DNA of 64,000 bases from an uncultured virus (IMG/VR IMGVR_UViG_3300031612_000002) (taxonomy: Duplodnaviria; Heunggongvirae; Uroviricota; Caudoviricetes). A model generated the notes under the pieces. The model saw only the letters and a program-made list of their open reading frames with translations. It did no database searches and was not told where the DNA came from. The stretch covers positions 1 to 64,000 of IMG/VR virus record IMGVR_UViG_3300031612_000002, one strand, 5' to 3'. The position numbers were made by a program, and so were the translations under genes. Each line of letters starts with the position of its first letter. Position 1 is the stretch's first letter. Shown here piece by piece: positions 8,403 through 61,705 of this stretch.

Positions 8403-8857
8403 AGCGTATCTAACCAATTAGAACCATTCATTGAACTAGTTTCGTGTATGGTTCTAATTTTCTTTACAATCTCTTTATTATATAATTGTGCTTTAGTTCC
8501 TGGATGCAAAGGACGTGGCCAGTTACCTATCTTAACCCAGCAAAACCCATCACTTTCATTATTGAGTTGTGGAATAAATTCTTCAAATACTGCAACTGCG
8601 AATGTATTATATTCAAACCTATTGTCAGGTGATATAAATTTATGCAGTGGGTATATCTTTTCAACATCGGGTAACATTCCGACCTCTTCTTCAAGTTCAC
8701 GAAGTAATGTTTCCAATGGACGCTCACCTACCTCTCCCTTGCCTCCGAAGAAGCCCCAAGTACGAGGATGACTAGATTTCTCACTACGCTGTTGTAGTAA
8801 TACTCTACCAGTATCGATACTTAAAAATATACAGCCACTCGCGTTTAATTTATCCAT
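8399..8857 (-). CDS. NUDIX hydrolase
   Basis: Nudix box GGKGEVGERPLETLLRELEEEVG; likely start MDKLNASG at 8857. Confidence 0.9.
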   Translation of the reverse strand: MDKLNASGCIFLSIDTGRVLLQQRSEKSSHPRTWGFFGGKGEVGERPLETLLRELEEEVGMLPDVEKIYPLHKFISPDNRFEYNTFAVAVFEEFIPQLNNESDGFCWVKIGNWPRPLHPGTKAQLYNKEIVKKIRTIHETSSMNGSNWLDTL

Positions 8858-8864
8858 AGATTGG

Positions 8865-10220
8865 TTACATATAAAGCCGCCAGAACCCAGCGTTATATAT
8901 CCCTTCATGGCTATTAATCCATTCTGATCCTGTCCATTCTAATTGGTCATCGGATAAGATATTTTCTACATATTGTTGAGTAGTCACAGCACTATGGTCA
9001 AATGATACTGTCCATATTGAGCCATTGTATTCAATGATGTCATTGGTATACGCATTTAACCCAGCCCATTCGCCACCATTCGGGATATCATTCGTAATAA
9101 TATATCTAGTGCCGATAACGGCAGCATCTACCGAACCATCGCCTGGATAATTCTGTAATGGGTTTAAAACACCATTAACCGCAGTCAATGTATTCGTGGG
9201 CAGAGTGCTAGTGTCTACATCTACATTTAACGCATTTACATTGCCTGTATTAAAACTAAGTCTACCAATAATATCATTATCTGTGTCGTTAGGTGCATTT
9301 GATTTTCTTATACGCATCTGACTAATACCTTCTCGTAATTCACCGAAGGGAGTCAAGAATTTAGACCAATCAAGTTGAGCGCCATTTTCATCTAGATTAG
9401 TACCAGAATCATTAAACAAGTATGCTATGTCATTTTCAAATTTAATTTTCATATCATCCAATGTAACAGTTATATATTGCAGCGATGATGTGTCAAATGG
9501 TTCCTTTGCATCAAATGCATCTAAATTGACATCATCTAAATTATATAATTGGTTGATTACGGTATAAATCAATTTTTGCTGTTTTAATTTGGCAGGGGGA
9601 TTAATAAATATCGGCATTTCAAACGTGAGTGTACTAACATCAATAATATCATCGACACTTGCGCCTACACTACGACTCGACCATTGCGAACTTTTCATTT
9701 CTACATAAGCAAGACTTGACCAATCAAGTGGATTGTCCGTTGTGTGGATATTTAATGTAGGATTGAATAATACCATAATTTGCTCAAGCAATTGCAATTT
9801 CTGATCTGTGTTTGAAGTCCAGATGTCGCAATTCATAGTTAAGTTATATGGAACTGGCATATGACGTTCAACCGTATATCGATTTCCGACCTCGTTCGTG
9901 TATTCGCCAGTTGTATCATCTATTGCTTTTTCATAAACTTGTACTTTGTCTACATGTCCTTGGTGCATCCTACGTTCTGGAGCCATTTCAAGTGCCGTAA
10001 CATAACAAGATATGAATGGAACAGTGTTTATTATATTTTCACTGTTTTCGCGAGTAATATGCGCAGCCATGCGATTTGTGTCGCCATAGCGAACTGGTAC
10101 AGTTTGGTAGATGGGCATCTTTTGGTCATTGACTCCCATTTGTACATCAAATCCACCAAACAATCTGATGAACTGTTGTATATATCGACGAACTTGTCTA
10201 TCATAAAAATATTGTGCCAT
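8865..10220 (-). CDS. Tail sheath stabiliser / tail terminator (T4 gp15-like) with C-terminal extension
   Basis: YFYDRQVRRYIQQF, VPVRYGD, PVPYNLTMNCDIW and QLLEQIMVLFNP match the gp15 family pattern. Confidence 0.8.
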   Translation of the reverse strand: MAQYFYDRQVRRYIQQFIRLFGGFDVQMGVNDQKMPIYQTVPVRYGDTNRMAAHITRENSENIINTVPFISCYVTALEMAPERRMHQGHVDKVQVYEKAIDDTTGEYTNEVGNRYTVERHMPVPYNLTMNCDIWTSNTDQKLQLLEQIMVLFNPTLNIHTTDNPLDWSSLAYVEMKSSQWSSRSVGASVDDIIDVSTLTFEMPIFINPPAKLKQQKLIYTVINQLYNLDDVNLDAFDAKEPFDTSSLQYITVTLDDMKIKFENDIAYLFNDSGTNLDENGAQLDWSKFLTPFGELREGISQMRIRKSNAPNDTDNDIIGRLSFNTGNVNALNVDVDTSTLPTNTLTAVNGVLNPLQNYPGDGSVDAAVIGTRYIITNDIPNGGEWAGLNAYTNDIIEYNGSIWTVSFDHSAVTTQQYVENILSDDQLEWTGSEWINSHEGIYNAGFWRLYM

Positions 10221-11337: not shown

Positions 11338-11402
11338 TTGACAATAGTAAGACATGTTGCTATAATAGTTAAGTAAGTTAATTAATCAAAGCGAGAAAAA
11401 TT
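11338..11402 (+). promoter_or_regulatory. sigma70-type early promoter with conserved leader
   Basis: TTGACA (11338) - 17 nt - TATAAT (11361), then agttaagtaagttaat..aaagcgagaaaaattATG. Confidence 0.9.
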
Positions 11403-30507: not shown

Positions 30508-30536
30508 TTGACATAACTGTAGTTTAATGCTATAAT
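30508..30536 (+). promoter_or_regulatory. sigma70-type promoter for uvsW
   Basis: TTGACA-N17-TATAAT. Confidence 0.85.
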
Positions 30537-30561: not shown

Positions 30562-32019
30562 ATTAAAACTGCAACAATCATATTGAAAGACGAAGTCAAT
30601 GCAAAGATAGAGGGTCTTGAACTTACTACTAGGAAAAAACTAGAAGCAAAGTTTAAGTTTTTCTTACCATATGCACGACACGTTCCTTCCTATAAATTAG
30701 GAAGATGGGATGGATGTGAGCGATATTTCACTATCGGTGGTATTACATTTGTCAGTCTATTAGAAACAGCGATTCCTATTATCATTGAAGATGGTTATCA
30801 GATTGAACTTGATGATCTTCGAACTCATAACAAACTTGAGTTTGATTTGGTAGATGAATCTACATTTCAACATAAAGCATGGCCCGCAAAGCATCGATTT
30901 GAAGGTAAGCCCGTAACATTGCGCGATTATCAAATCGATATCGTAAACAAGTTTATAGAAACACCCCAATGTATACAAGAGATTGCAACAGGCGCTGGTA
31001 AGACATTGATCACAGCAGCATTGAGTTACAAAGCAGAAAAGTACGGTCGCTCTATTGTTATTGTACCAAACAAAGATTTGGTGAATCAGACATATGCAGA
31101 TTATGTTAACTTAGGATTAGATGTTGGCGTATATTTTGGTGATAAGAAAGATTTCGGTCGTACTCATACTATTTGTACATGGCAGAGTCTTAACGTTATT
31201 CGTAAACGATTCAAGAATGGCGAACAAGATTGGGGACTACAAGATTTTGCAGAAGATGTAGTTTGTATCATAGTTGACGAAGTTCACCAAGCGAAAGCAG
31301 ATGTTCTAAAAGATATGCTCACTAAAGAATTTGCAAATGTGCCTCTACGATGGGGACTAACTGGTACAATACCAAAAGCAGAACATGAACAGATGACATT
31401 GCAGGTTAGTTTGGGCAATGTGGTAAATCGTCTAGCAGCATCCGAATTGCAAGACATGGGCGTACTGAGTAATTGTCATGTAAATATTGTACAAATGAAA
31501 GAAATTACAGACTATACTAATTATCAAAGTGAATTGACGTTCTTAACAACGAATTCACATAGAATCGGTTACATGGGTGATTTGATAAAGAAGATTTCGC
31601 AATCGGGTAATACTCTAGTATTGGTTGATCGTATCAAAGCAGGTGAAATGTTAGTAGAGCATATTGGTGGTGACACTACTTTCGTAAAAGGTGCAATGAA
31701 ATCATCTGATCGTAAAGACGCATATGATGAAATTAATGAAGCGACTAATAGTATTACTATTGCGACATATGGTGTTGCAGCAGTAGGACTTAACATACCG
31801 CGTATATTTAACATGGTGTTAATTGAGCCTGGGAAGAGTTTCGTACGAGTAATACAATCAATTGGTCGTGGTGTGCGTAAGGCAGATGACAAGGATCATG
31901 TTGAGATATATGATTTCACTAGTACAGCAAAATTCAGTAAGCGACATTTAACTGAACGTAAAAAGTTCTATCGTGAGGCAAACTATCCATTCTCAATAGA
32001 GAAAGTAGATTACAAGTAA
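30562..32019 (+). CDS. uvsW: SF2 DNA helicase UvsW-like
   Basis: LRDYQ, ATGAGKT, DEVH, GLTGT and QSIGRGVR. Start proposed at ATT 30562 (track: TTG 30583). Confidence 0.9.
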   Translation: MKTATIILKDEVNAKIEGLELTTRKKLEAKFKFFLPYARHVPSYKLGRWDGCERYFTIGGITFVSLLETAIPIIIEDGYQIELDDLRTHNKLEFDLVDESTFQHKAWPAKHRFEGKPVTLRDYQIDIVNKFIETPQCIQEIATGAGKTLITAALSYKAEKYGRSIVIVPNKDLVNQTYADYVNLGLDVGVYFGDKKDFGRTHTICTWQSLNVIRKRFKNGEQDWGLQDFAEDVVCIIVDEVHQAKADVLKDMLTKEFANVPLRWGLTGTIPKAEHEQMTLQVSLGNVVNRLAASELQDMGVLSNCHVNIVQMKEITDYTNYQSELTFLTTNSHRIGYMGDLIKKISQSGNTLVLVDRIKAGEMLVEHIGGDTTFVKGAMKSSDRKDAYDEINEATNSITIATYGVAAVGLNIPRIFNMVLIEPGKSFVRVIQSIGRGVRKADDKDHVEIYDFTSTAKFSKRHLTERKKFYREANYPFSIEKVDYK

Positions 32020-32044: not shown

Positions 32045-32545
32045 ATGAAAATTTTAACAGTAGAGAACAAAACATATGAATTGGATGATGTACCAGAATT
32101 GGTAGATGATCTACGATATGGCGTATTAGATTACAGCGACCCAAAGAACGTGGATTACTTTTTTATTCCATTGATCTTTTTGGAAAGTTTTTATAGTCCA
32201 GCGGCAGTGCTACAAGTGGGTGAATATACAATCAATGTTCCATTAGATTGGAGTATTGTTATTTGTGATCCGGAAGTGGGCAATCCAGAAGTGATTAGTT
32301 TAATGGGATTAAACGACAGAGGTTTCACTACGCTCGCAATGAATCCAATGACTGGTTACAGTCCAAAGTATCTTGATGTTAACATTGTCAATGTATTCAC
32401 AGATGTAAAATGGCACGCACCGAAACTAAAATTTGGTCATATCCTGTCAGTGCCGTTGACTGATGGAGACAATCCAGAGTGTATCTATCTGATTAAAGAA
32501 GTAAACAAGATCCCAGAAGTGTTGGACATTAGTGAATTGATCTAG
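32045..32545 (+). CDS. Hypothetical protein
   Basis: Intact 166-aa ORF in the replication block. Confidence 0.8.
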   Translation: MKILTVENKTYELDDVPELVDDLRYGVLDYSDPKNVDYFFIPLIFLESFYSPAAVLQVGEYTINVPLDWSIVICDPEVGNPEVISLMGLNDRGFTTLAMNPMTGYSPKYLDVNIVNVFTDVKWHAPKLKFGHILSVPLTDGDNPECIYLIKEVNKIPEVLDISELI

Positions 32546-32553
32546 GAGTAGGT

Positions 32554-33228
32554 ATGAACAAAGAATTTTTAAAACATCGTACATGGAAGATGCAGACTAA
32601 ATTATGTTATGGTTTTGATTCAGTTGCTTTTATTTCTACAACTAAATCATCTGATCGTAGCACTGCGGCATCAGTGTATGGTAGATGTCAAGCATTGAAA
32701 TCTGTACTTAATAAAACTATGAAAAACGTCAAAGTAGTTAACCAGCACAGTTATCATGAAGGTAGTAGTTTGCGTGTATATTTCAATGTATCTGATAAAG
32801 AATCATGTGATGCATTATTAAACATCACTTCTAAGAATACGCATAACTTTGAATTGCTTGAAGTAAAGACTCCTAAAAATCAAGCTCATTTAGATATGAT
32901 TAAAAATAAAGAAATTACACAGGTAATTAGAAAAAAAATTTACTATAACAAGTATGTATATAGTGTGAAGATTATTTTGGATGATGCAGTTTCACGTATT
33001 ACCGAAAGAATGGATCTGGTTTGGGATATGCAATCATGGATTGATAATGCAATACCAGATAATTCATCAAGTGTGTGGTGGGATGAAATTCAATTATTCA
33101 CTAATGATGTAACTGCGTTGATGATGTTTAGGTTGACATTTGATGTTAAGTCGTGTACTATTAAAGAAGCAATTCTTCTTGAAAACGAAGACAGCGATCC
33201 AGAACATGAAATGGGAATTTTGATTTGA
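32554..33228 (+). CDS. Hypothetical protein
   Basis: AGGAG RBS, 224 aa. Confidence 0.75.
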   Translation: MNKEFLKHRTWKMQTKLCYGFDSVAFISTTKSSDRSTAASVYGRCQALKSVLNKTMKNVKVVNQHSYHEGSSLRVYFNVSDKESCDALLNITSKNTHNFELLEVKTPKNQAHLDMIKNKEITQVIRKKIYYNKYVYSVKIILDDAVSRITERMDLVWDMQSWIDNAIPDNSSSVWWDEIQLFTNDVTALMMFRLTFDVKSCTIKEAILLENEDSDPEHEMGILI

Positions 33229-33683
33229 GTAAGTTAAATATTAAAAGTGAAATGCGTGCAATAGACACACGTGATCGTAATTGGTACGATAGTCTAACTG
33301 ATGAAGAGACTGTAAAATACAATAAGAATATGTGGACACAGCAACGTTTCATAAGTTCATGCGAGGGACAATTCGCAGAGCATTATTTAGAATGGACAAA
33401 TGAATTAGTCAATGTTCACTTTAATACTCTGCGACATCATCCTAAGTTGCAGTTTCAGTTATTGCAAGCACTGTCATTAGGGTCTAGTCAATATCACGAG
33501 TGGATTTCTCCGGGCAAGAAAGGAACGGATACAAAGATATTTAAATTTATTAAAGAACACTATCTTAACTTAAACGACGATGAAGTAGAATTGTTTATCG
33601 GAATGCATGATAAGACTGATCTAAGAGAACTGTTAGGTGATTTTGGATTAAGTAAAAAAGAAGCAACGGCTCTTCTAAAATAA
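33225..33683 (+). CDS. Putative clamp loader small subunit (T4 gp62-like)
   Basis: RFISS, TNELVN, HPKLQFQLL and EWI pattern plus C-terminal helices are reminiscent of gp62. Inference. Confidence 0.5.
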   Translation: MSKLNIKSEMRAIDTRDRNWYDSLTDEETVKYNKNMWTQQRFISSCEGQFAEHYLEWTNELVNVHFNTLRHHPKLQFQLLQALSLGSSQYHEWISPGKKGTDTKIFKFIKEHYLNLNDDEVELFIGMHDKTDLRELLGDFGLSKKEATALLK

Positions 33684-33752: not shown

Positions 33753-34445
33753 ATGCAACAAATATTGTACAAGTGCGAATACTGTAATAAAGACTTTAAG
33801 CGTGAGAATACGCTTATTGTGCATTTATGTGTGCAAAAGAAGCGACATATGCAAGAGACTGATAAAGATGTTCAATTGGGATATCGTGCATATCAGTTAT
33901 TTTACCGTATTGGAACAAATTCAAAGAAAGATAAATCTTACACTGAATTTGCAAAAAGTTCATATTATGCTGCGTTCATAAAGTTTGGTAAATATTGTAT
34001 TGAAGTTAAGATAGACGATGTTACTGGATTCACCACATGGTTATTAAAAAATCAAGTAAAATTAGATCATTGGACACATGATGCAAGATTTAGTGGTTGG
34101 GTAAAAGAGCGATTGAAAGTAGAAAGTGTTGATCGTGCAGTTGAGCGCACGATATTATCAATGCAAGACTGGGCAGAAGATAGAGAAAATGATTGGAATA
34201 CATATTTCAAAACGGTAGCACCTAGTCTAGCGGTATTTCATATATGTTCTGGTAGAATTAGTCCATGGGTTATATATGCTAGTAATGATGCACAGAGTTT
34301 GTTGGATATGTTGAATAACAAGCAGATTGAAATGATCGTAGATTATATTGATCCGCAATATTGGCAGATACGATTAAAGCGTAAGAACGAAGTTAAAGAT
34401 TTACAATGGGTGGAAACTATTTTGAAACAAGCGAGTATAGGATAA
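33753..34445 (+). CDS. C2H2-type zinc finger protein
   Basis: YKCEYCNKDFKRENTLIVHLC at the N-terminus. Confidence 0.7.
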   Translation: MQQILYKCEYCNKDFKRENTLIVHLCVQKKRHMQETDKDVQLGYRAYQLFYRIGTNSKKDKSYTEFAKSSYYAAFIKFGKYCIEVKIDDVTGFTTWLLKNQVKLDHWTHDARFSGWVKERLKVESVDRAVERTILSMQDWAEDRENDWNTYFKTVAPSLAVFHICSGRISPWVIYASNDAQSLLDMLNNKQIEMIVDYIDPQYWQIRLKRKNEVKDLQWVETILKQASIG

Positions 34446-35074
34446 TGAAAATCAATTTATGTGGGGTGGATATCCCTTTACCAGATGGAAAATATGCAAT
34501 CAATGTCAGTGGTGGAGCAGATAGTGCATTATTGCTTTATATATTAATGACGTATACGCAACATGATGTTATTGTAACAACTATGGCGGATGATGAACTC
34601 GCTTTGATCAATTCAATTTCAGCATCGCGAGTTGTTAATAAAGTAATAAAATTAACTGGTAACTTTAATGTAGAGCATAGTATAACATATGTACAGCAAT
34701 ATAGACATCTCGATCAATCACTTATTGACGATGAAACTATTAAAGTATATTATACTGGTGTCACTAGCAATCCGCCAGATGATATATCTATTGGATTTGG
34801 TGATGAAGATGTTGGTTCAGGCGAGACTCTTGGACTAGGTCTGCCTGATAGATCTCCTAATGTAGTGCGAGATATATGGGCGGCTGAAGGCGCTATATGT
34901 TTACCATTCTTCAATGTTGATAAGACGAAAATTGCTGAAATATATGATTATTTAGGAATAACTGAAACACTATTTCCAATGACAGTTAGTTGCACAGTTA
35001 ATACAGATGATACACACTGTGGTGAGTGTTGGTGGTGTGAAGAGCGTAAATGGGCATTTGGTAGATTGGTATGA
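34445..35074 (+). CDS. QueC-like PP-loop ATPase (divergent)
   Basis: SGGADS PP-loop; PFFNVDK; TVSC..HCGECWWCEER Zn motif. ATG 34445 overlaps the previous stop. Confidence 0.8.
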   Translation: MKINLCGVDIPLPDGKYAINVSGGADSALLLYILMTYTQHDVIVTTMADDELALINSISASRVVNKVIKLTGNFNVEHSITYVQQYRHLDQSLIDDETIKVYYTGVTSNPPDDISIGFGDEDVGSGETLGLGLPDRSPNVVRDIWAAEGAICLPFFNVDKTKIAEIYDYLGITETLFPMTVSCTVNTDDTHCGECWWCEERKWAFGRLV

Positions 35075-35649
35075 TAGTTAATACAGATATTGATATAGAT
35101 ATTGCAAACAGAGATAAATTGCTTGCTTTAATCAAAAACACACCTGCAATGATCAAGCGAGACACCACTGAAAAAAAGCACAACACAGGTGTATATTTTC
35201 ACGAGATGCCGACTAATCCATATAATGGCATGGCAACCATAGATCATAAAGAAGCCGAGAAGATGGGTTACTTTAAAATGGATTTGTTGAATGTGTCAGT
35301 TTATAATGATATTAATAATAAAGCAGAACTGGATGAATTACTTGAGATGGAACCTATGTGGGATCTATTGGAACATAGAGAGATTGTAGAGCAGTGTTTC
35401 CATATCCATTCGCATTATGGAATTGTTCAGCAGATGAAGCCCAAAAGTGTTGAACAATTGGCAGCAGTGTTAGCAATGATACGACCAGCAAAGAGTTATC
35501 TAATAGGAAAAGATTGGGATACTGTGATGAATGATATTTGGGTAAAGCCAGAAGACGGTGGTTATTTCTTTAAAAAGTCGCATTCGTATAGTTACGCGAT
35601 GGTAATTGTAATGCAATTGAATAAGATTGTTAAAGAGTCTTTTTCATAA
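35071..35649 (+). CDS. Minimal DNA polymerase III alpha (DnaE)-like catalytic core
   Basis: TDIDID, KHNTGVY, GYFKMDLL, KPKSVEQLAAVLAMIRP and YFFKKSHSYSY in DnaE motif order, in only 192 aa. Confidence 0.85.
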   Translation: MIVNTDIDIDIANRDKLLALIKNTPAMIKRDTTEKKHNTGVYFHEMPTNPYNGMATIDHKEAEKMGYFKMDLLNVSVYNDINNKAELDELLEMEPMWDLLEHREIVEQCFHIHSHYGIVQQMKPKSVEQLAAVLAMIRPAKSYLIGKDWDTVMNDIWVKPEDGGYFFKKSHSYSYAMVIVMQLNKIVKESFS

Positions 35650-36001
35650 GATTAATACTTCGACGTTTTATTCGTTTTGTAATAGAATTGCTGAGTCTAA
35701 CTTCTGGTCCAGCAATTATGGTCATCTGTTTTACATTAAAACTTTGTACACAATGTTGAAAATGCCACCTATTTATCAATGCAATATTGATTGGTAACTG
35801 TCTATTAGTTTCCCACCACCATTCCTCTCCTAACATGAGAAATAAATGTTTTTCATCTACATTGTCCAGTCGTTCAAACATGTACATACTTGCGATTTGA
35901 GTGTCTATGTTTTGCATGACACCGACGTATTCGTTTCCAGCGTAAGATAGCACTGTTAGGAATGGATATTGGTCGAGTAATTCTTCATATTGTTTTTGCA
36001 T
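35630..36001 (-). CDS. Hypothetical protein
   Basis: 123-aa minus-strand ORF with its own late-type TATAAATA motif at 36008-36015. Confidence 0.75.
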   Translation of the reverse strand: MQKQYEELLDQYPFLTVLSYAGNEYVGVMQNIDTQIASMYMFERLDNVDEKHLFLMLGEEWWWETNRQLPINIALINRWHFQHCVQSFNVKQMTIIAGPEVRLSNSITKRIKRRSINLMKKTL

Positions 36002-36071: not shown

Positions 36072-36893
36072 ATGAGCAATTACAGCACAAGTTACAATAT
36101 AAACCAAACTGGCGATCTATACATCTTACAGGATCACGGCACATCAACAGGCGCATCACAGTACAATAGTACACGTGGCACAACGGTCAATGCACCCGTT
36201 AATTTCAATCGTCTTAAATTATTTAAGGGACTTGATAACGAGTTGCATTTCTTTATAAAGAATCAAGATCGTAAGCCTATTAAATTATTTAATATGGAAA
36301 TTAATGCATCATTGGTGTACAGAGAGACTAACAGTACTATATTAAGTACAAAATGTTCTATCACCGATTACGAATTAGGAAGCGTGAAATTAGTAGTTCG
36401 TGCATCCCATTTGTCGAATATAGACATGGGGCTATGTGATTTAGTATTAACATATACTAATGATCTGGGTCTTGTATTGCCTATGTTCGTAGATCAGAAT
36501 ATGCGTCCAAATTTCACAGTAGAGATATCAGATGAAGCACATGCAATACCGTTGACTTCGCAGTCTGTGACAGCATTCGCATCAGATGGTGCATTTGATT
36601 ATAGTTCAATTATTGCGGGACCGTCGTATTACAACAAGCCAAATGGATTGATTACATTTGGTGTATATTGTACTGACTACACGGGTGATTTTTATATGCA
36701 GGGAACAACTGCACAATCGCCAGGACCGGGAGATTGGTTTGATTTAGATTTGACACCATTCTACGATTACCATGAGTTTAATAATTTTACTGGTATTGAG
36801 CCATTTTCGATCGTATCTAATTTATCATATCTACGAGCAAAAATTGATAATACATTATCTGGAACTGTAGATAGAATCGTAATAAGAGTATAA
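36072..36893 (+). CDS. Hypothetical beta-rich protein, probable virion structural protein
   Basis: Late promoter; Ig-like beta-strand pattern (LFKGLDNELHFFIKNQDRKP). Confidence 0.6.
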   Translation: MSNYSTSYNINQTGDLYILQDHGTSTGASQYNSTRGTTVNAPVNFNRLKLFKGLDNELHFFIKNQDRKPIKLFNMEINASLVYRETNSTILSTKCSITDYELGSVKLVVRASHLSNIDMGLCDLVLTYTNDLGLVLPMFVDQNMRPNFTVEISDEAHAIPLTSQSVTAFASDGAFDYSSIIAGPSYYNKPNGLITFGVYCTDYTGDFYMQGTTAQSPGPGDWFDLDLTPFYDYHEFNNFTGIEPFSIVSNLSYLRAKIDNTLSGTVDRIVIRV

Positions 36894-36935: not shown

Positions 36936-37943
36936 ATGAGATTAATAATAGATTTTACAAGAACGTTAGTGCCTTCCAATTGGAAGTCTTCGCCGGGCGG
37001 TTGGGTTTCTGGTAATTGTCCTGTGTGTGTTCTTAACGGACATTCGCATGACACCAAAGGTCGCGGTGGTTTTCTTATCACTGATGAAAAATTCCAATAC
37101 AATTGTTTCAATTGTAATTACGCTACTGGCTGGTCTGTCGACAAGCGCATAGATGATCGATTAAGGAAGTTATATAAAGCATTCGGTGCCGATGATAGTG
37201 ACATTCAACGATTGCAACTACAGTTGCTTGAAGATCGTGATATTGATGCTATTCTTATCAAGCAACGAGATAAAGATGCTCCTATAAATATCACATGGAA
37301 AGCGCAAGAATTACCAGAAGGTGCAAAGCCTATATCTGAGTATACTGAAGTAACCCCCGAACTTGAAAGAGTATTAGAATACATGGTATCAAGAGGATTA
37401 GATCCTACTGATCCGCGTTTCTATTATTCACCATCTATGTCACCAGCCCGAATGAAGAATAGATTTATTCATGTATTCACTTATCAAGGTGTGATAGTAG
37501 GATATACTGCTAGATGGGTAGGTACTCCTTCAAAAGAAATTCCAAAATACTTTACTAAGCAACCTAAAGTCGACTTCGTATATGGATTAGATAGACAAAC
37601 TAATAAAAAGATTGTTATCGTGACAGAGGGACAACTGGATGCATACTTTACAGATGGAATAGCAGTTGGTTCGAATAACATAAACATGCAACAAGGTAAC
37701 ATAATCGATAATTTGAATAAGAAAATTATATTGTTGCCTGATGCAGATGCTGCAAGTAAATCATTGGTATCTACCGCAATTGAACGAGGCTGGTATGTGG
37801 CATTCCCAGAATGGGATGACTGTAAAGATGCAGCAGACGCAGCATTGAAGTATGGTGAATTATTCACTATACAAACTATATTAGATAGTGCGATACACGG
37901 CAATTTAAAAATACAAGTAATGATGAAAAATTACTGCAAATAA
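36936..37943 (+). CDS. DNA primase (DnaG/gp61-like)
   Basis: CPVC..CFNC Zn domain; TOPRIM motifs VTEGQLDA, PDAD and KDAAD. Confidence 0.9.
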   Translation: MRLIIDFTRTLVPSNWKSSPGGWVSGNCPVCVLNGHSHDTKGRGGFLITDEKFQYNCFNCNYATGWSVDKRIDDRLRKLYKAFGADDSDIQRLQLQLLEDRDIDAILIKQRDKDAPINITWKAQELPEGAKPISEYTEVTPELERVLEYMVSRGLDPTDPRFYYSPSMSPARMKNRFIHVFTYQGVIVGYTARWVGTPSKEIPKYFTKQPKVDFVYGLDRQTNKKIVIVTEGQLDAYFTDGIAVGSNNINMQQGNIIDNLNKKIILLPDADAASKSLVSTAIERGWYVAFPEWDDCKDAADAALKYGELFTIQTILDSAIHGNLKIQVMMKNYCK

Positions 37944-38783: not shown

Positions 38784-40178
38784 ATGAGCGAAACAAAAGA
38801 ATATACAGTGGAACTACAGCAACTTTTTATTGAGTTCCTGGCACAAGATAAAGATCTATTCCTACGAGTGAATAATATTTTAGAAGCAAGTTACTTCGAT
38901 AGAACACTCAGGAAGACAGTGCAGTTTCTTCAAGATCATGTATCATCGTATGGTGCATTGCCCACGACAGATCAGATCAAAGCACTCACTAGCATTAAAC
39001 TGGCTGGAATTGGCGATACTGTCGATGATAGGCATAAGAGTTGGTTTATTGATGAATTTGAAACATTCTGCAAGCATAAAGCATTGGAAGCAGCAATTCT
39101 TCAAAGTGCAGATCTTGTAGAAAAAGGTGAATTTGGCGAAGTAGAGCGCATCATTAAAGAAGCAGTGCAAGTAGGTCTTGCGAAGCATATGGGTATCAAC
39201 TATTGGGATGATCCTAAAGAGCGTATTGAAGCAGCAAGGCATTCGCGAGCAGGTACAAGCACTGGTTGGAAGTCGGTTGATTATAAATTGTTTGGTGGAT
39301 TTAACCCAGGCGAGTTGAATATCTTCGCAGCAGCATCAGGTGGTGGTAAAAGTTTATTCTTACAAAACTTGGCACTTAATTGGTCATTGATGGGTAAGAA
39401 TGTTTTATATGTTTCACTAGAATTAAGTGAGTCATTGTCAGGTTTACGACTTGATGGTATGTTAACTGGTATGAATACAAAAGCGATCTTCAACGATGTA
39501 GAAGGTACAGCGTTGAAAGTAGGTATGCAAGGCAAGTCTGCGGGCAAACTACAGATAATTCAAGTACCCAACGGTATCACTACAAATGATTTGACAAGTT
39601 ACATGAGAGAATTTGAAGTTCAGAATGGTGTACGCATCGATGCTATGTTGGTTGACTACTTAGATCTAATGACTCCCGCAGGACGAAAGATCAATGCGAG
39701 TGACTTGTTTATTAAAGATAAGTATGTTTCTGAAGAATTGCGTAACTTCGCAGTAGAGAATAATGTATTGTTTGCAACTGCGTCACAGTTGAATAGATCG
39801 GCAGTTGAAGAAGTAGAATTCGATCATAGTCATATCTCTGGTGGTTTAAGTAAGATTCAAACAGCAGATAACGTAATTGGTATCTTTACAAGTCAAGCGA
39901 TGAGAGAGCGTGGTAGGTATCAAATTCAATTTATGAAGACACGTAGTTCATCTGGTGTAGGACAGAAAGTTGATTTAGCGTTTGATATAGAAGGGTTGCG
40001 AATTACCGACTTGCCTGATGATGAGCAAGATACTATAACGAATCAATCTAGTACAATATATGATAAATTAAAGAAGAAAAACACGATAGTTCAAAGTCCC
40101 AATGAGGCAGCGCCTGAGCCTACTAGTACAGAAGACCAATCAGCGCGTCTACGTAGTATTTTAAGAAAACAAGATTAA
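38784..40178 (+). CDS. Replicative DNA helicase (T4 gp41/DnaB family)
   Basis: STGW, AASGGGKS, YVSLELSE, VDYLDLM, TASQLNR and MKTR. Confidence 0.95.
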   Translation: MSETKEYTVELQQLFIEFLAQDKDLFLRVNNILEASYFDRTLRKTVQFLQDHVSSYGALPTTDQIKALTSIKLAGIGDTVDDRHKSWFIDEFETFCKHKALEAAILQSADLVEKGEFGEVERIIKEAVQVGLAKHMGINYWDDPKERIEAARHSRAGTSTGWKSVDYKLFGGFNPGELNIFAAASGGGKSLFLQNLALNWSLMGKNVLYVSLELSESLSGLRLDGMLTGMNTKAIFNDVEGTALKVGMQGKSAGKLQIIQVPNGITTNDLTSYMREFEVQNGVRIDAMLVDYLDLMTPAGRKINASDLFIKDKYVSEELRNFAVENNVLFATASQLNRSAVEEVEFDHSHISGGLSKIQTADNVIGIFTSQAMRERGRYQIQFMKTRSSSGVGQKVDLAFDIEGLRITDLPDDEQDTITNQSSTIYDKLKKKNTIVQSPNEAAPEPTSTEDQSARLRSILRKQD

Positions 40179-49100: not shown

Positions 49101-51398
49101 ATGAAGGAAATCATGGTACAAAAGCGCAACGGCGCTAGAGAACCACTTGACTTGGATAAATTACACAAGGTTGTGTTTTATGCTTGCAACGATATTGCAG
49201 GTGTTAGTCCGTCGGAAGTGGAAATCAAAAGTAGTATTCAGTTTTTTAACGGAATCACAACTAACGAAATTCAAGAAACATTAATTAAAGCAGCAGCAGA
49301 TTTAATCACCGAAGAAACACCAAACTATCAATGGGTAGCAGGACGATTAATCAATTATCATTTGCGCAAGCAAGTGTACAATGACTTTAAACCTGCACAC
49401 TTGATTAATGTTATAGAAGATAATATTGAACGTGGGTATTATGATGATGAAATTCTTTCATTATATTCGTCAGACGAGATTGACCAACTAAACAATTACA
49501 TCAAGCATTATCGTGACGAAGATATCGCATATGTAGGCATGGAACAATTCCGTGGCAAATACTTAGTGCAAAATCGAGTGACAGGTCAACTCTTTGAAAC
49601 TCCTCAAATCGCATACATGATGATTGCAGCGACATTATTTGGTAGTTATACGAATAATCGCATGAAATGGGTTAAAGATTACTATGATGCAATCAGTACA
49701 TTTGATATTTCACTTCCTACGCCTGTTATGGCTGGTGTTCGCACTAATGTACGTCAGTTCAGTTCATGTGTACTAATTGAATCAGATGATAGTCTAGATA
49801 GTATTAATGCAACAGCAAACGCCGTTGTAAAGTATGTATCTCAAAAGGCAGGCATTGGAATTGGCGCAGGGCGCATTCGTGCGATCAACTCTCCTATTCG
49901 AAATGGAGACGCAGCACACACAGGTGTTATCCCATTCTATAAGATGTTTCAATCATCAGTTAAAAGCTGTTCACAGGGCGGCGTACGCGGCGGAGCAGCG
50001 ACATTGTACTATCCATTATGGCATCTAGAAGTAGAAGACATGTTGGTGTTAAAGAACAACAAAGGTACTGAAGATAATCGAGTAAGGCATTTGGATTACG
50101 GGGTACAAGTTAATAAACTTATGTACGAACGTTTGATTACTGGTGGCAACATTACATTATTCAGTCCTAGTGATGTCCCTGGATTATATGATTCATACTT
50201 CGAAGATCAAGAAAAATTTAAAGAATTGTACGAGAAGGCTGAACGTAATTCAAAAATTCGCAAGAAGGTAATTACTGCAATTGAATTATTTTCTATCTTT
50301 ATGCAAGAGCGAAAGAATACTGGTCGAATCTATTTGATGAATGTAGACAATGTAAATGAGCATAGTTCATTCAAGCAAGAATTAGCACCTGTTCGTCAGA
50401 GTAATTTATGTGCAGAGATTACATTACCTACCTCTCCTATGACAGATATATTTAAAGGTGATGGAGAAGTTGCTACTTGTACATTATCAGCAATAAATTG
50501 GGGTAATATCAAATCATTAGCAGATTTTCAGAAGCCGTGTGAATTGGCAGTACGAGGACTTGATGCATTATTGAGTTATCAGAATTACCCAGTACTAGCA
50601 GCAGAATTAGGAACACAAAAGCGTCGACCGCTTGGAGTTGGTATTATCAACTTCGCATATTGGCTTGCAAAGCATGACACCAATTACACAGATCCTGATC
50701 TTGAATTAGTAGACGAATGGACAGAAGCATGGTCATACTACTTGATTAAAGCATCAGCCGATTTAGCGATTGAACAAGGACAGTGTCCAGGATTCAATGA
50801 AACTAAATATAGCGATGGTATTTTGCCAATAGATACTCGTAAAAAAGAAGTAGACGAATTGGTAGCACACAAAGAGCGTATGCCATGGGATGCGTTACGA
50901 GCGCAAATAAAAGAAACTGGTATTCGCAATAGTACATTGATGGCATTGATGCCAGCAGAGACATCGGCACAGATAAGTAACAGTACGAATGGAATTGAAC
51001 CACCACGATCTTTGGTAAGTATTAAGCAATCAAAGCATGGTGTATTAAAGCAAGTAGTTCCTGGCATACATCGATTAAAGAATAAGTATGAATTATTATG
51101 GGATCAACAGTCACCAGAAGGTTATTTAAAGATTGTATCGATATTACAGAAATATATTGATCAAGCGATCAGTGTAAATACTAGTTACAATCCTATATAT
51201 TTTGAAGATGAAAAGATTCCGATGAGTGTCATGATGAAGCACTTGTTAATGTTCTACCGTTATGGTGGTAAGAATCTTTATTACTTTAATACATATGATG
51301 GACAGGGTGAGGTTGATATTAATAAAATGAATGCAGATCCTTTAGCACAAGCGGATCTAAGTGAGATAGACGACGACTGCGATAGTTGCACGATATAA
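49101..51398 (+). CDS. nrdA: Ribonucleotide reductase class Ia alpha subunit
   Basis: ATP-cone VQKRNG, RQFSSC, SCSQGGVRGG, SNLCAEI, MPAETS, LYY and C-terminal CDSC. Confidence 0.97.
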   Translation: MKEIMVQKRNGAREPLDLDKLHKVVFYACNDIAGVSPSEVEIKSSIQFFNGITTNEIQETLIKAAADLITEETPNYQWVAGRLINYHLRKQVYNDFKPAHLINVIEDNIERGYYDDEILSLYSSDEIDQLNNYIKHYRDEDIAYVGMEQFRGKYLVQNRVTGQLFETPQIAYMMIAATLFGSYTNNRMKWVKDYYDAISTFDISLPTPVMAGVRTNVRQFSSCVLIESDDSLDSINATANAVVKYVSQKAGIGIGAGRIRAINSPIRNGDAAHTGVIPFYKMFQSSVKSCSQGGVRGGAATLYYPLWHLEVEDMLVLKNNKGTEDNRVRHLDYGVQVNKLMYERLITGGNITLFSPSDVPGLYDSYFEDQEKFKELYEKAERNSKIRKKVITAIELFSIFMQERKNTGRIYLMNVDNVNEHSSFKQELAPVRQSNLCAEITLPTSPMTDIFKGDGEVATCTLSAINWGNIKSLADFQKPCELAVRGLDALLSYQNYPVLAAELGTQKRRPLGVGIINFAYWLAKHDTNYTDPDLELVDEWTEAWSYYLIKASADLAIEQGQCPGFNETKYSDGILPIDTRKKEVDELVAHKERMPWDALRAQIKETGIRNSTLMALMPAETSAQISNSTNGIEPPRSLVSIKQSKHGVLKQVVPGIHRLKNKYELLWDQQSPEGYLKIVSILQKYIDQAISVNTSYNPIYFEDEKIPMSVMMKHLLMFYRYGGKNLYYFNTYDGQGEVDINKMNADPLAQADLSEIDDDCDSCTI

Positions 51399-51416
51399 CG
51401 GAATATAAATATAGAT

Positions 51417-52547
51417 ATGAGCATTTTTAATATAACAAAAAAAGCGGATTACACGAAATCATTAGCATTTCTTGATCCAGGTGGGAGAGTAAGTTTACAA
51501 CGGTACGATGTTCTCAAATACAAGCAATTTGATAAATTAACCGAAAAGCAATTGGGATTCTTTTGGATCCCTGATGAAGTTGATGTTACAAAAGATTCTA
51601 ATGATTTCAAGCAATTAACTGCAAATGAACAGCATATATTCACATCTAATCTAAAGCGTCAAATCCTTTTAGATAGTGTACAAGGTCGTGCACCTAGTGA
51701 AGCATTCGGTTCTATCGTTAGTCTACCAGAATTAGAAACATGGATTCAAACATGGACGTTTAACGAGACGATACATAGTAAATCATATACGCATATTATT
51801 CGTAATATATATTCTGATCCGTCTATTATCTTTGATGAAATCTTAGACATTAAAGAAATCGTTGATTGTGCATCTGCCATTTCGGTAAATTATGATGCTC
51901 TAATTGATCAAGCCGCTTGGTACAATTTACTAGGCGAAGGCGTACATAAGGTTAATGGCAGAGAAATCACTGTTGACCTGTACGAGTTAAAGAAGTCGTT
52001 ATACAAGGCAGTAATGGGTGTAAACATACTAGAAGGTGTTCGCTTCTATGTATCGTTTGCATGTAGTTGGGCGTTTGCAGAACTTAAAAAGATGGAAGGT
52101 AATGCAAAAATTATCAAGTTTATTGCGCGTGATGAGAATCTACATTTAGCGTTCACACAATCATTATTAAAGATCTTACCAAAAGACGACCCAGATTATA
52201 TTAAGATCGCAAAAGAAACTGAAGAAGAATGTATTCAGATGTTTGTAGATGCAATTGAACAAGAGAAGCAATGGGCAGAATATCTATTTAAAGATGGTTC
52301 AATGATTGGGTTAAATGCTCAACTATTGGGTGAATATGTAGAATGGATTGGGTGTAAGCGAATGGTGGCAGTGGGATTATCTTGTCCATATAAAGTACCG
52401 CAAGCAAACCCACTACCTTGGACACAAAAATGGATTGCTGGTGCAGAAGTACAAGTGGCACCACAAGAAGTACAACTATCGTCATATATTATAGGCGGTG
52501 TAACATCGGACGTTACTAAAGATACCTTTACGGGTATGTCATTATAA
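51417..52547 (+). CDS. nrdB: Ribonucleotide reductase class Ia beta subunit
   Basis: FFWIPDEV, LDSVQGR, ETIHSKSY, LEGVRFYVSF, RDENLH and VAPQE. Confidence 0.97.
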   Translation: MSIFNITKKADYTKSLAFLDPGGRVSLQRYDVLKYKQFDKLTEKQLGFFWIPDEVDVTKDSNDFKQLTANEQHIFTSNLKRQILLDSVQGRAPSEAFGSIVSLPELETWIQTWTFNETIHSKSYTHIIRNIYSDPSIIFDEILDIKEIVDCASAISVNYDALIDQAAWYNLLGEGVHKVNGREITVDLYELKKSLYKAVMGVNILEGVRFYVSFACSWAFAELKKMEGNAKIIKFIARDENLHLAFTQSLLKILPKDDPDYIKIAKETEEECIQMFVDAIEQEKQWAEYLFKDGSMIGLNAQLLGEYVEWIGCKRMVAVGLSCPYKVPQANPLPWTQKWIAGAEVQVAPQEVQLSSYIIGGVTSDVTKDTFTGMSL

Positions 52548-58369: not shown

Positions 58370-59110
58370 ATGAAATTAAACGAAGTACTGAATACATTAC
58401 CTGATACGGACAAAGTCGTTATTACACACAGTGGTGGACTTGATAGTTCAACTGCTGTTATTATTGCTGCACACAAATACGGCGCTGAAAATGTATTCTC
58501 AGTTGGTTATGATTACGGACAAAAGCAGCGAGTAGAATTAGATCGCGCAGCACAGTTATGTGAGAAACTTGGTGTTCATCGTCAATTGTTTGATCTTTCT
58601 ATTCTAGGTGAAATTGCAAAACCTATGAGTGCAAACATTGCGGGCACTGATGTAGTAATGCCGACTATTCAAGATGTATTAGGTGAACCACAGCCTTCGA
58701 CATATGTGCCATATCGTAATATGATCTTATTTTCATTGACTGCTGCATATGCAGAAGCGATGGGTGCAGAATATGTATTTGCTGGTATTCAAGCAACTGA
58801 TGCATATGGTTATTGGGATACTACGCCTAGTTTTGCAGACGCATTGAATAATGTAATGAGTATGAATCGTAATTGTCCTGTACAATTGGTAGCACCATTT
58901 AATACATTGACCAAAGATGAAGAGATTGCATTATTAGAGGAACTTGACTTAGTACATTTATACGAGTATACATTGACATGTTACGATCCTGATATTGATG
59001 GTAAGTCATGTGGTGTATGTCCTAGTTGTGCAGAACGTATCAAAGCATTCATGGATAGGTCTATTGCAGATCCTATTGAATACCAAATACAGATTCCTTG
59101 GAATGTGTAG
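58370..59110 (+). CDS. queC: 7-cyano-7-deazaguanine synthase QueC
   Basis: SGGLDS, YDYGQK, STYVPYRN, APF..LTK and TLTCY..SCGVCPSCAER. Confidence 0.92.
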   Translation: MKLNEVLNTLPDTDKVVITHSGGLDSSTAVIIAAHKYGAENVFSVGYDYGQKQRVELDRAAQLCEKLGVHRQLFDLSILGEIAKPMSANIAGTDVVMPTIQDVLGEPQPSTYVPYRNMILFSLTAAYAEAMGAEYVFAGIQATDAYGYWDTTPSFADALNNVMSMNRNCPVQLVAPFNTLTKDEEIALLEELDLVHLYEYTLTCYDPDIDGKSCGVCPSCAERIKAFMDRSIADPIEYQIQIPWNV

Positions 59111-60487: not shown

Positions 60488-61705
60488 ATGAAGTATCGTA
60501 ATATAGAATCAAAAGGTGTACCAATAAAAGCGTGGATAGACGGCGTTAATTTGGAAGATCAAGCAAAAGAGCAATTGCAAAACATAGCACAATTGCCGAT
60601 CATACACAGTCACATAGCAGTGATGCCAGACGTTCACTTAGGTAAAGGAGCAACGATAGGTAGTGTTATACCTACGTTAAAAGCAATCATACCTAATGCG
60701 GTTGGAGTTGATCTAGGTTGTGGAATGATGGCTGCAATGACAACATTGTATGCTAAAGATTTACCAGATAATTTACTCGCTGTTCGTACTGCTATAGAAA
60801 AAGCAGTACCACACGGACGTACAAATAACGGCAAAGCAGTTAATGACAAAGGTGCTTGGAATGATATACCAAAACTTGCATCTGATTTATGGAAAATGCA
60901 CCTTGAGCAACAGTTCAATAAAATGGTTGATAAGTATCCAGAGATAGGTCAGTGTAACCACATTGTACACCTTGGAACATTGGGAACTGGTAATCATTTT
61001 ATAGAGTTATGTCTTGATGAAAATCAGCAAGTATGGATAATGTTACACTCTGGTTCACGTGGTGTTGGTAATCGTATTGCGTCAACTTTCATAGCGAAAG
61101 CGAAGCAAGATATGATAAATCAGCAGACACATTTGCCAGATAAAGAGTTGGCATATTTGCAAGAAGGATCGCCATACTTTGACGACTATGTAGAAGGTGT
61201 TACATGGGCGCAAGAGTTTGCCAAGATCAATCGTCAAGTGATGATGCAACTAACCATAGAAGCATTGGAATCAGTATTGCCACCATTTAAGGCTAACGTG
61301 TTGGCGGTTAATTGTCACCACAACTACGTGAGTAAAGAGCATCACTTCGGTGAAGATGTTTACTTGACACGTAAAGGTGCGGTTTCTGCTAAGGCTGGTG
61401 AGTTGGGTATAATCCCAGGATCAATGGGTGCTAAAAGTTTCATTGTGCGTGGTTTAGGTAATCCTGAATCATTTTCATCATGTAGTCACGGCGCAGGTCG
61501 TACAATGTCACGTACTGCGGCACGTAAGCAGTTCACCGTAGATGACCACATCAAGGCGACAGCAGGAGTAGAGTGTCGTAAAGACGAAGATGTGATTGAT
61601 GAAACCCCAATGGCATATAAAGACATCGAAGCGGTAATGAAAGCACAGGATGATTTAGTTGAAGTTGTTCACACATTAAAGCAAGTTGTTTGCGTAAAGG
61701 GTTGA
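60488..61705 (+). CDS. rtcB: RtcB 3'-phosphate RNA ligase
   Basis: MPDVHLGKG, VGVDLGCG, LGTLGTGNHF, LHSGSRG, HHNY, RKGA, PGSMG, SHGAGR, DETP.AYK and VCVKG. Confidence 0.97.
   Translation: MKYRNIESKGVPIKAWIDGVNLEDQAKEQLQNIAQLPIIHSHIAVMPDVHLGKGATIGSVIPTLKAIIPNAVGVDLGCGMMAAMTTLYAKDLPDNLLAVRTAIEKAVPHGRTNNGKAVNDKGAWNDIPKLASDLWKMHLEQQFNKMVDKYPEIGQCNHIVHLGTLGTGNHFIELCLDENQQVWIMLHSGSRGVGNRIASTFIAKAKQDMINQQTHLPDKELAYLQEGSPYFDDYVEGVTWAQEFAKINRQVMMQLTIEALESVLPPFKANVLAVNCHHNYVSKEHHFGEDVYLTRKGAVSAKAGELGIIPGSMGAKSFIVRGLGNPESFSSCSHGAGRTMSRTAARKQFTVDDHIKATAGVECRKDEDVIDETPMAYKDIEAVMKAQDDLVEVVHTLKQVVCVKG

Follow-up and report, generated by a model that had tools for sequence, protein, structure and literature searches.

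What can a protein of 192 amino acids do that carries the motifs of the bacterial replicase DnaE and is encoded among the replication genes of a phage with its own family B DNA polymerase (PolB)? The question is raised by an open reading frame (ORF) of an uncultured tailed virus (IMG/VR IMGVR_UViG_3300031612_000002), located in the 64,000-nucleotide stretch of DNA analyzed here (the window). The initial annotation of this window had described the product either as a stripped-down DnaE core or as one subunit of a split polymerase, placed in a T4-type replisome. The latter setting is borne out by genes for a gp32-like SSB, UvsX, UvsY, UvsW, primase and DnaB, all of which are present in the window.

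A short ORF with the motifs of DNA polymerase III alpha

The ORF (35071..35649, plus strand) runs from an ATG start, which overlaps the stop of ORF 34406-35074, to a TAA stop, and its 3' end shares 20 nt with that of the convergent ORF 35630-36001. Its product, hereafter the C-unit, contains in order D6-D8-D10, H37..G40V, K69.D71LL, P124.S126, R138P139, F167.K169S170H171 and Y175. The order of DnaE motifs reported initially is therefore correct, but two of the patterns given for them, P.S..L......RP and H..Y, were off by one residue (the Tyr belongs to H...Y). The corrected ordered pattern matches the C-unit and E. coli DnaE; it occurs in one of the 239 ORFs of G000, the contig containing the window, in none of the 183 ORFs of the related contig G018, and in none of 50,000 shuffles. 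The residues correspond to those of E. coli DnaE as follows: D6/D8/D10 to D401/D403/D405, K69 to K553, D71 to D555, R138 to R639, H171 to H760 and Y175 to Y764.

Over its full length the C-unit matches PHROG 11778 (E 5e-65), and it matches the DnaE family PHROG 405 with an E value of 6e-10. No polymerase came up when the PDB was searched by sequence. An AlphaFold model of the C-unit (47 sequences, pLDDT 77, pTM 0.65) was superposed on known structures as the initial annotation had suggested, and family C came out on top: Pol III/PolC structures occupy ranks 1-7 in VIA-align (Z 7.7-4.8, rmsd of about 5 Å), residues 1-192 being aligned with E. coli 399-781 in the comparison with 5m1s. Foldseek also placed Pol III/PolC structures on top, with PDB E values never down to 0.001. 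The structural Z values are modest taken alone, and the family assignment rests on the motifs. On these grounds, the product is identified as the C-terminal part of a family-C polymerase core that is divided between two genes, and contributes the Asp/Mg site and the steric gate. The proposed descent from DnaE holds, but the core encoded by the ORF is incomplete, as it lacks the part of the palm that binds the nucleotide and carries the GRGS motif.

A conserved family of split polymerases

For jumbo phages of group 2.2, a minimal form of Pol III alpha has been described that is divided between distant genes and occurs alongside PolB (Iyer et al., 2021, PMC7824862). In the parts of that paper drawn on here, an N-terminal NTP-binding unit is distinguished from a C-terminal unit binding Mg and the DNA template, and the split enzyme is suggested to aid the synthesis of one strand, or repair. 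As judged from its sequence, the C-unit belongs to this family, which has been known at the same level since 2021. Shared features are the standalone C-unit, a distant N-unit gene and PolB in one genome, and no PHP domain was found in the records searched here (see below). The gene is homologous to (37-50% identity among the 60 matches listed) and syntenic with those of Phosso, PA5oct, RaK2 and Atu_ph07, the last being a phage of the group named in that paper. The group 2 traits PolB, gp32-type SSB, UvsW, phage sigma factor and clamp loader are all present. Compared with other members of group 2.2, a QueC-like ORF is inserted upstream of the C-unit gene in the present lineage, and nothing essential differs.

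Among 8,000 scored candidates (105-336 aa), 7,949 proved to be homologues of the C-unit, and 119 of the best 120 are 189-206 aa long. The 150 listed representatives include only one exceeding 250 aa, which is a fusion of both units (P0303, see below), and 55 shorter than 180 aa, which are probably contig-end fragments. In a close set of 158 distinct sequences, D8, D10, K69 and D71 are invariant, and D6 and H171 are each found in 157. A diverse set of 94 rows was made up of the query, P0303 and those 92 representatives that measure 180-220 aa, 57 more on the list being excluded by their length. Here, K69 and D71 are kept in all rows, R138 in 93, D6 and D8 in 92, H171 in 91 and D10 in 90. The three catalytic Asp residues noted initially are present and conserved. 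Values of dN/dS were 0.063, 0.077 and 0.064 for three of five pairs, dS being saturated in the other two.

These data bear on the idea that the C-unit is a decayed fragment of DnaE or a catalytically dead scaffold. The loss of several nucleotide-binding Arg residues from the pair and the 55 short representatives would fit such an idea, which is nevertheless opposed by the thousands of homologues of similar length, by the low dN/dS (0.06-0.08) with near-invariant catalytic Asp, and by the single long representative being a fusion of N- and C-unit. The initial annotation had proposed checking length conservation and dN/dS and had named full-length homologues beside a decayed copy as evidence against its view; short homologues under purifying selection were found instead, and decay or a dead scaffold appears highly improbable.

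The C-unit is found in 96 GenBank phage records, including PA5oct, Paride, Atu_ph07, RaK2 and PBECO4. It also occurs at six loci of cellular genomes, all on MAG contigs, which are assumed to represent phage DNA binned into MAGs. The pair of C-unit and N-unit is near universal among jumbo phages of group 2.2.

The partner gene lies elsewhere in the genome

The initial annotation had sought possible partners of a split polymerase among the neighboring genes at 32045, 33225, 33753 and 35630. The notion of a split polymerase stands, but the partner is encoded near the clamp loader gene instead, and none of these neighbors resembles a DnaE segment in the (weak) comparisons described below. The cognate N-unit (168-172 aa, PHROG 11127), which contains the GRGSS motif, is encoded outside the 64-kb window at G018:170578-171084 (L150:10578-11084, plus strand). 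It corresponds to E. coli 320-393 without any extension beyond 393, and its GRGSS motif is kept in all 127 aligned rows. The gene is part of a conserved block (L150:10325-14682, plus strand for the N-unit) with the order small helical ORF, N-unit, PHROG 14844 ORF, GroES-like, ClpP and clamp loader genes. A separate N-unit was recovered with Pfam PF07733 from all four complete cultured phages searched; in three cultured phages it has 169-177 aa and ends just past GRGSS. Downstream come a small ORF, then a GroES-like gene and, in PA5oct and RaK2, next the clamp loader. The cognate N-unit matches 87 GenBank phage records, as compared to 96 for the C-unit.

The contig of the window itself, G000, has 117 kb and is 31% complete. 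The N-unit is absent from it and from five close contigs, and is present in one of five larger relatives; among 12 records with an N-unit, most of which are fragments, two also contain the C-unit. A further contig, G001, shares 48,252 bp with G000 (99.94-100% identity) and about 91.5 kb with G018 (99.93-100% identity). By these overlaps, G000 and G018, bridged by G001 (with about 8 kb present in neither), make up a putative near-complete genome of roughly 315 kb. The outer ends of G018 and G000 overlap as well, at 89-93% and where IscS-like ORFs were recognized by eye, which suggests a circle of this size; N-unit and C-unit would be about 214 kb apart on it in one direction and about 100 kb in the other. 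The verified overlap of G001 and G018 does not extend to the N-unit, which may therefore be the allele of a close variant. G001 also contains about 580 bp of extra sequence near window position 8850-8869.

The search of the rest of the genome proposed initially yielded PolB at G000:85440-88082, on the same contig as the C-unit. PHP genes were sought in four records, G000, G001, G018 and the complete relative G020, with no match in any of them (the virus's own genome being in pieces), and a search model for the fingers matched only the C-unit ORF and its orthologues.

Predicted assembly of the two units and a fused form

The cut between the units falls within the palm: the N-unit ends at E. coli position 393, and the C-unit starts at about 396-399. 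This leaves no room for intein halves, and a split-intein arrangement was rejected on the basis of lengths and alignment, as the N-unit has no extension and only five C-unit residues precede D6. Co-folding of N- and C-unit gave an ipSAE of 0.86 in all three runs, as compared to 0.44 for the best of three controls, with contacts agreeing among runs to at least 95% and a partner pLDDT of at least 90. In a benchmark, 116 of 157 solved complexes attained the mark applied, as did 2 of 215 mismatched pairs. The predicted interface involves C-unit residues 5-13, 71-75 and 168-174 against N-unit residues 129-142 (GRGSS), so that the GRGSS loop faces the strands with the Asp residues and the helix with KKSH. 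Because the two proteins are halves of a split gene, the co-fold may have passed through its likeness to solved DnaE structures. Taken together, it is considered very probable that N-unit and C-unit form a heterodimer.

A possible natural form of both halves on one chain is represented by P0303 (375 aa), in which the N-unit (residues 1-180, hhalign 99.6%) and the C-unit (residues 190-373, E 1e-42) follow each other in DnaE order, connected by a linker of about 10 residues. P0303 is a singleton on a contig of only 2,415 bp, and its single-sequence fold has a pLDDT of 36. Used as a query, it gave matches at 186 places in 96 GenBank phage records, all of them unjoined, and no relatives were found in viral or metagenome contigs. 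Longer or fused forms were likewise absent among 505 candidates from a word-indexed search, which missed P0303 itself, and a search for the DNA pattern of the junction gave at least 118 stretches, with no fused form among the 80 examined. As it was not found again in these further searches, P0303 may be an error or a one-off. Its C part is placed among the split forms without strong support in a poorly resolved, unrooted tree calculated in quick mode, and P0303 may have arisen by re-fusion or may reflect the ancestral state.

Active-site residues kept and lost

Compared with E. coli DnaE, the pair retains D401, D403, D405, D555, K553, R639, H760 and Y764, and in addition R362-G363-S364, which are supplied in trans. 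Published accounts, as far as they are cited here, regard D401/D403/D555 as the active site and H760 as a modeled steric gate (PMC8485763), and list G363/S364, R362, R390, R709 and R710 as nucleotide contacts of E. coli DnaE (PMC4374717). Only R362 of these four dNTP-contacting arginines is kept. The position of R390 is occupied by Glu in 126 of 127 N-units, and R709 and R710 fall within a deleted part, as the spacing between R639 and H760 is reduced from 121 aa in E. coli to a median of 34 in the C-unit family. Similarly, D405 and H511 are 106 aa apart in E. coli and a median of 27 in the family. From the domain boundaries, these two deleted segments presumably represent the index finger (R639-H760) and the thumb (D405-H511). 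Equivalents of R396, Y686 and E688, which we take to be among the functional residues of DnaE, are gone as well. The whole pair comprises about 360 residues and is devoid of PHP domain, thumb, index finger and anything past about E. coli position 781. Two family-specific Lys residues, K141 (85 of 94 rows) and K168 (86 of 94 rows), might conceivably compensate for the lost arginines.

The catalytic core of family C has been defined, in the part of the source considered here, as including a thumb, complete fingers and a duplex-binding domain (PMC8373059), all of which are absent from the pair. Because of these missing parts, the pair should be regarded as a family C-like core by its residues, yet as no canonical DnaE.

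The same pattern of losses feeds the main rival to a polymerase function, namely that the heterodimer is a template-independent or otherwise specialized nucleotidyltransferase, which would add 3' tails of a few dNMPs or make a short oligonucleotide without copying a template. The deletion of thumb and index finger, the exchange of R390 for a conserved Glu, the loss of R709/R710 and the presence of PolB in the same phage all point in this direction. The Pol-beta fold moreover includes many template-independent enzymes. Against such a transferase stand the retention of the K553 and R639 equivalents, of the steric-gate His and of the first fingers helices, and the location of the C-unit in a replication block; in the relevant part of PMC7824862, this type of unit is also called a Mg- and DNA-template-binding subdomain. 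A transferase of this kind is accordingly judged unlikely, and a template-directed reaction remains the preferred reading.

Gene neighborhood and possible further partners

As judged from the organization of 83 loci with a complete C-unit, the counts below referring to those with sufficiently long flanks, the C-unit has UvsW on one side and primase/DnaB on the other wherever the flanks are long. The block begins with the UvsW helicase (30583..32019, plus strand, 69 of 69 loci) and continues on the same strand with a conserved 166-aa protein (32045..32545, PHROG 11279, 72 of 72), a conserved 152-aa protein (33225..33683, PHROG 11758, 74 of 74) and a conserved C2H2 zinc-finger protein of 230 aa (33753..34445, PHROG 11058, 76 of 76). 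A QueC-like/PP-loop ORF (34406..35074, plus strand) is found in 8 of 78 loci and is a lineage-specific insertion outside the module; the neighbors at 32554 (9 of 72) and 37956 (7 of 68) are lineage-specific as well. The C-unit is followed by the convergent gene of a conserved 123-aa protein (35630..36001, minus strand, PHROG 11637), which is present in all 83 loci, including all 72 with long flanks, is under purifying selection and overlaps the C-unit stop in 82 of the 83, four cultured phages included. Further downstream are a gene at 36072, which like the other conserved genes is kept in all loci whose flanks suffice (64-76 loci per gene), a T4 gp61-like DNA primase (36936..37943, plus strand, 69 of 69) and a DnaB-like replicative helicase (38784..40178, plus strand, 64 of 64). 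Gene order is conserved across long blocks in such phages, and this context does not point to one function.

A match to the sigma-70-type promoter consensus (30508..30536, plus strand, 12 of 12 positions, a consensus match only) precedes UvsW and likely marks the start of a transcript including the C-unit. G000 contains 16 near-perfect promoters of this type, all on the plus strand and none on the minus strand: those at window positions 11338, 29216, 29503, 30508, 47151, 53426, 57085, 59787, 61702 and 63204, and six more elsewhere in the contig. An A/T-rich motif behind the -10 box is common to the eight copies inspected, and the set probably represents an early promoter. Genes for a class I ribonucleotide reductase and an RtcB RNA ligase were also noted in the window (49101-52547 and 60488-61705, respectively).

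The lack of DNA-gripping parts in the pair raises the possibility that a third protein, most plausibly that encoded at 33753 or 35630, replaces thumb and finger and converts the pair to a processive second replicase, e.g., for the lagging strand. Both genes are conserved in all long-flank loci under purifying selection, and the suggestion of one-strand synthesis or repair in the cited part of PMC7824862 would agree with such a role. The zinc-finger gene at 33753 is the best candidate for a putative third partner. It is located directly 5' of the C-unit in many relatives and shows dN/dS values of 0.02-0.04 in close pairs, indicative of strong purifying selection. C2H2 zinc-finger proteins are, to our knowledge, rare in phages. 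Nevertheless, adjacency is of little predictive value here, because the known partner, the N-unit, is not adjacent, and no PHP was found in the four records mentioned above. Comparing the products of 32045, 32554, 33225, 33753, 35630 and 36072 with 11 segments of E. coli DnaE and 11 T4 proteins by hhalign gave 3.6% as the best probability, in a weak profile-versus-single-sequence test, and the zinc finger was the only Pfam domain in 30 homologues representing four neighbors. A third subunit with this task seems improbable, even more so than a template-independent transferase. The ESM Atlas contains unnamed clusters for 33753 and gives a weak acetyltransferase lead but no firm family for 35630; the idea, formed by eye, that 33225 encodes a T4 gp62-like small subunit of the clamp loader received no support from hhalign or Pfam.

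The initial annotation had suggested a role of the C-unit in incorporating or repairing modified bases, and a QueC-like ORF abuts the gene. Genes for deazaguanine precursors are present at several places, namely the QueC-like ORF (34406-35074), QueC (58370-59110), GTP cyclohydrolase (L147:16934-17620), QueE (L148:3094-3981) and QueD (L150:6981-7427), and no transglycosylase was identified beside these pathway genes. A pair dedicated to modified bases would fit this gene set, but the QueC-like neighbor is restricted to the few loci given above, and the gene pair is near universal in the group, whereas modification systems are patchy among jumbo phages and the insertion of deazaguanine is the task of a transglycosylase (PMC7824862, section 3.4.7). 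The proposal retains little support and is regarded as very unlikely.

Comparison with other polymerase systems

The pair shares with DnaE and PolC (NP_414726; structures 5m1s, 2hnh, 5lew and 3f2b) the Pol-beta-type palm, the order of parts, K553, the RP motif and the steric-gate H760, with the GS motif provided in trans. It differs in consisting of two chains with about 360 aa rather than 1160, without PHP, thumb, index finger, duplex-binding, OB and C-terminal regions, and in having Glu in place of R390 and lacking R396, R709 and R710. Split-intein DnaE of cyanobacteria and some phage loci is likewise a family-C polymerase made from two genes, but yields a full-length enzyme; here, intein halves would not fit, as the N-unit stops at the equivalent of FERFLN. 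A full-type phage DnaE unrelated to the pair (L172:3-1553), whose N part ends soon after FERFL and is followed by endonuclease-like ORFs (seen by eye), is possibly a fractured intein locus. Secondary polymerases that extend primers are known from Bacillus subtilis, where DnaE hands over to PolC, and from eukaryotes (Pol alpha). The parallel is one of function only, a non-proofreading polymerase beside the main replicase and a primase; those enzymes are large single-chain or multi-domain proteins with shown activity, whereas the role of the pair is only predicted.

No bench study of split Pol III alpha was found in the open-licence literature. Sections 3.4.1 and 3.4.7 of PMC7824862 contain no residue-level account, co-fold or fused form. 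As far as the parts of these sources considered here extend, PMC11895373 (Sharanji) only lists a gene 'DNA polymerase III DnaE', a preprint on a chimallivirus split polymerase (PMC13648687) is silent on Pol III and family C, and the polymerase survey of Yutin (PMC11348598) contains nothing on this family.

Proposed function and implications

N-unit and C-unit are predicted to bind each other without splicing and to rebuild a palm, in which the N-unit would give the Gly-Ser/Arg362 nucleotide pocket and the C-unit the metal site with its three Asp, the Lys at the primer end (K553) and the helix of the steric gate. Because about 360 residues without PHP/exonuclease, thumb, index finger, duplex-binding, OB and C-terminal regions are available, the pair would act as a dNTP-selective, non-proofreading accessory polymerase of low processivity (distributive). 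It may extend 3' ends by short stretches of DNA, at primers made by the primase or at invading ends and gaps generated by UvsX/UvsW, after which PolB and its clamp would take over. Activity of the pair on a nucleic-acid 3' end is probable, and an accessory template-directed role in the primosome or in recombination-dependent replication is slightly favored. The exchange of R390 for Glu and the absence of R396, R709 and R710 would argue against a simple DnaE-like activity, as would the lack of a thumb to bind the duplex. Moreover, T4 PolB uses primase-made primers directly, so the need for a primer extender is not evident.

Beyond the published description of the family, the present analysis identifies the gene of the cognate partner, gives a co-fold of the pair with confident scores, records which active-site residues are kept or lost, and points to a single chain that may be a natural form. 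These data should ease the testing of function, all the more as the family is present in the cultured and tractable phages Paride, PA5oct, RaK2 and PBECO4. In a bolder and more doubtful version, the pair would be an active family-C polymerase that, at about 360 residues, works without a thumb and has its triphosphate pocket rewired (Glu for R390 and family-specific Lys for the finger Arg), serving as a Pol-alpha-like extender between a T4-type primase and PolB. If true, this would mean a two-polymerase phage replisome mixing bacterial and archaeo-eukaryotic polymerase types, and P0303 would be a ready-made minimal family-C enzyme. If the pair is active at all, it would represent the smallest working family-C core, with a bearing on the ancestor of the bacterial replicase.
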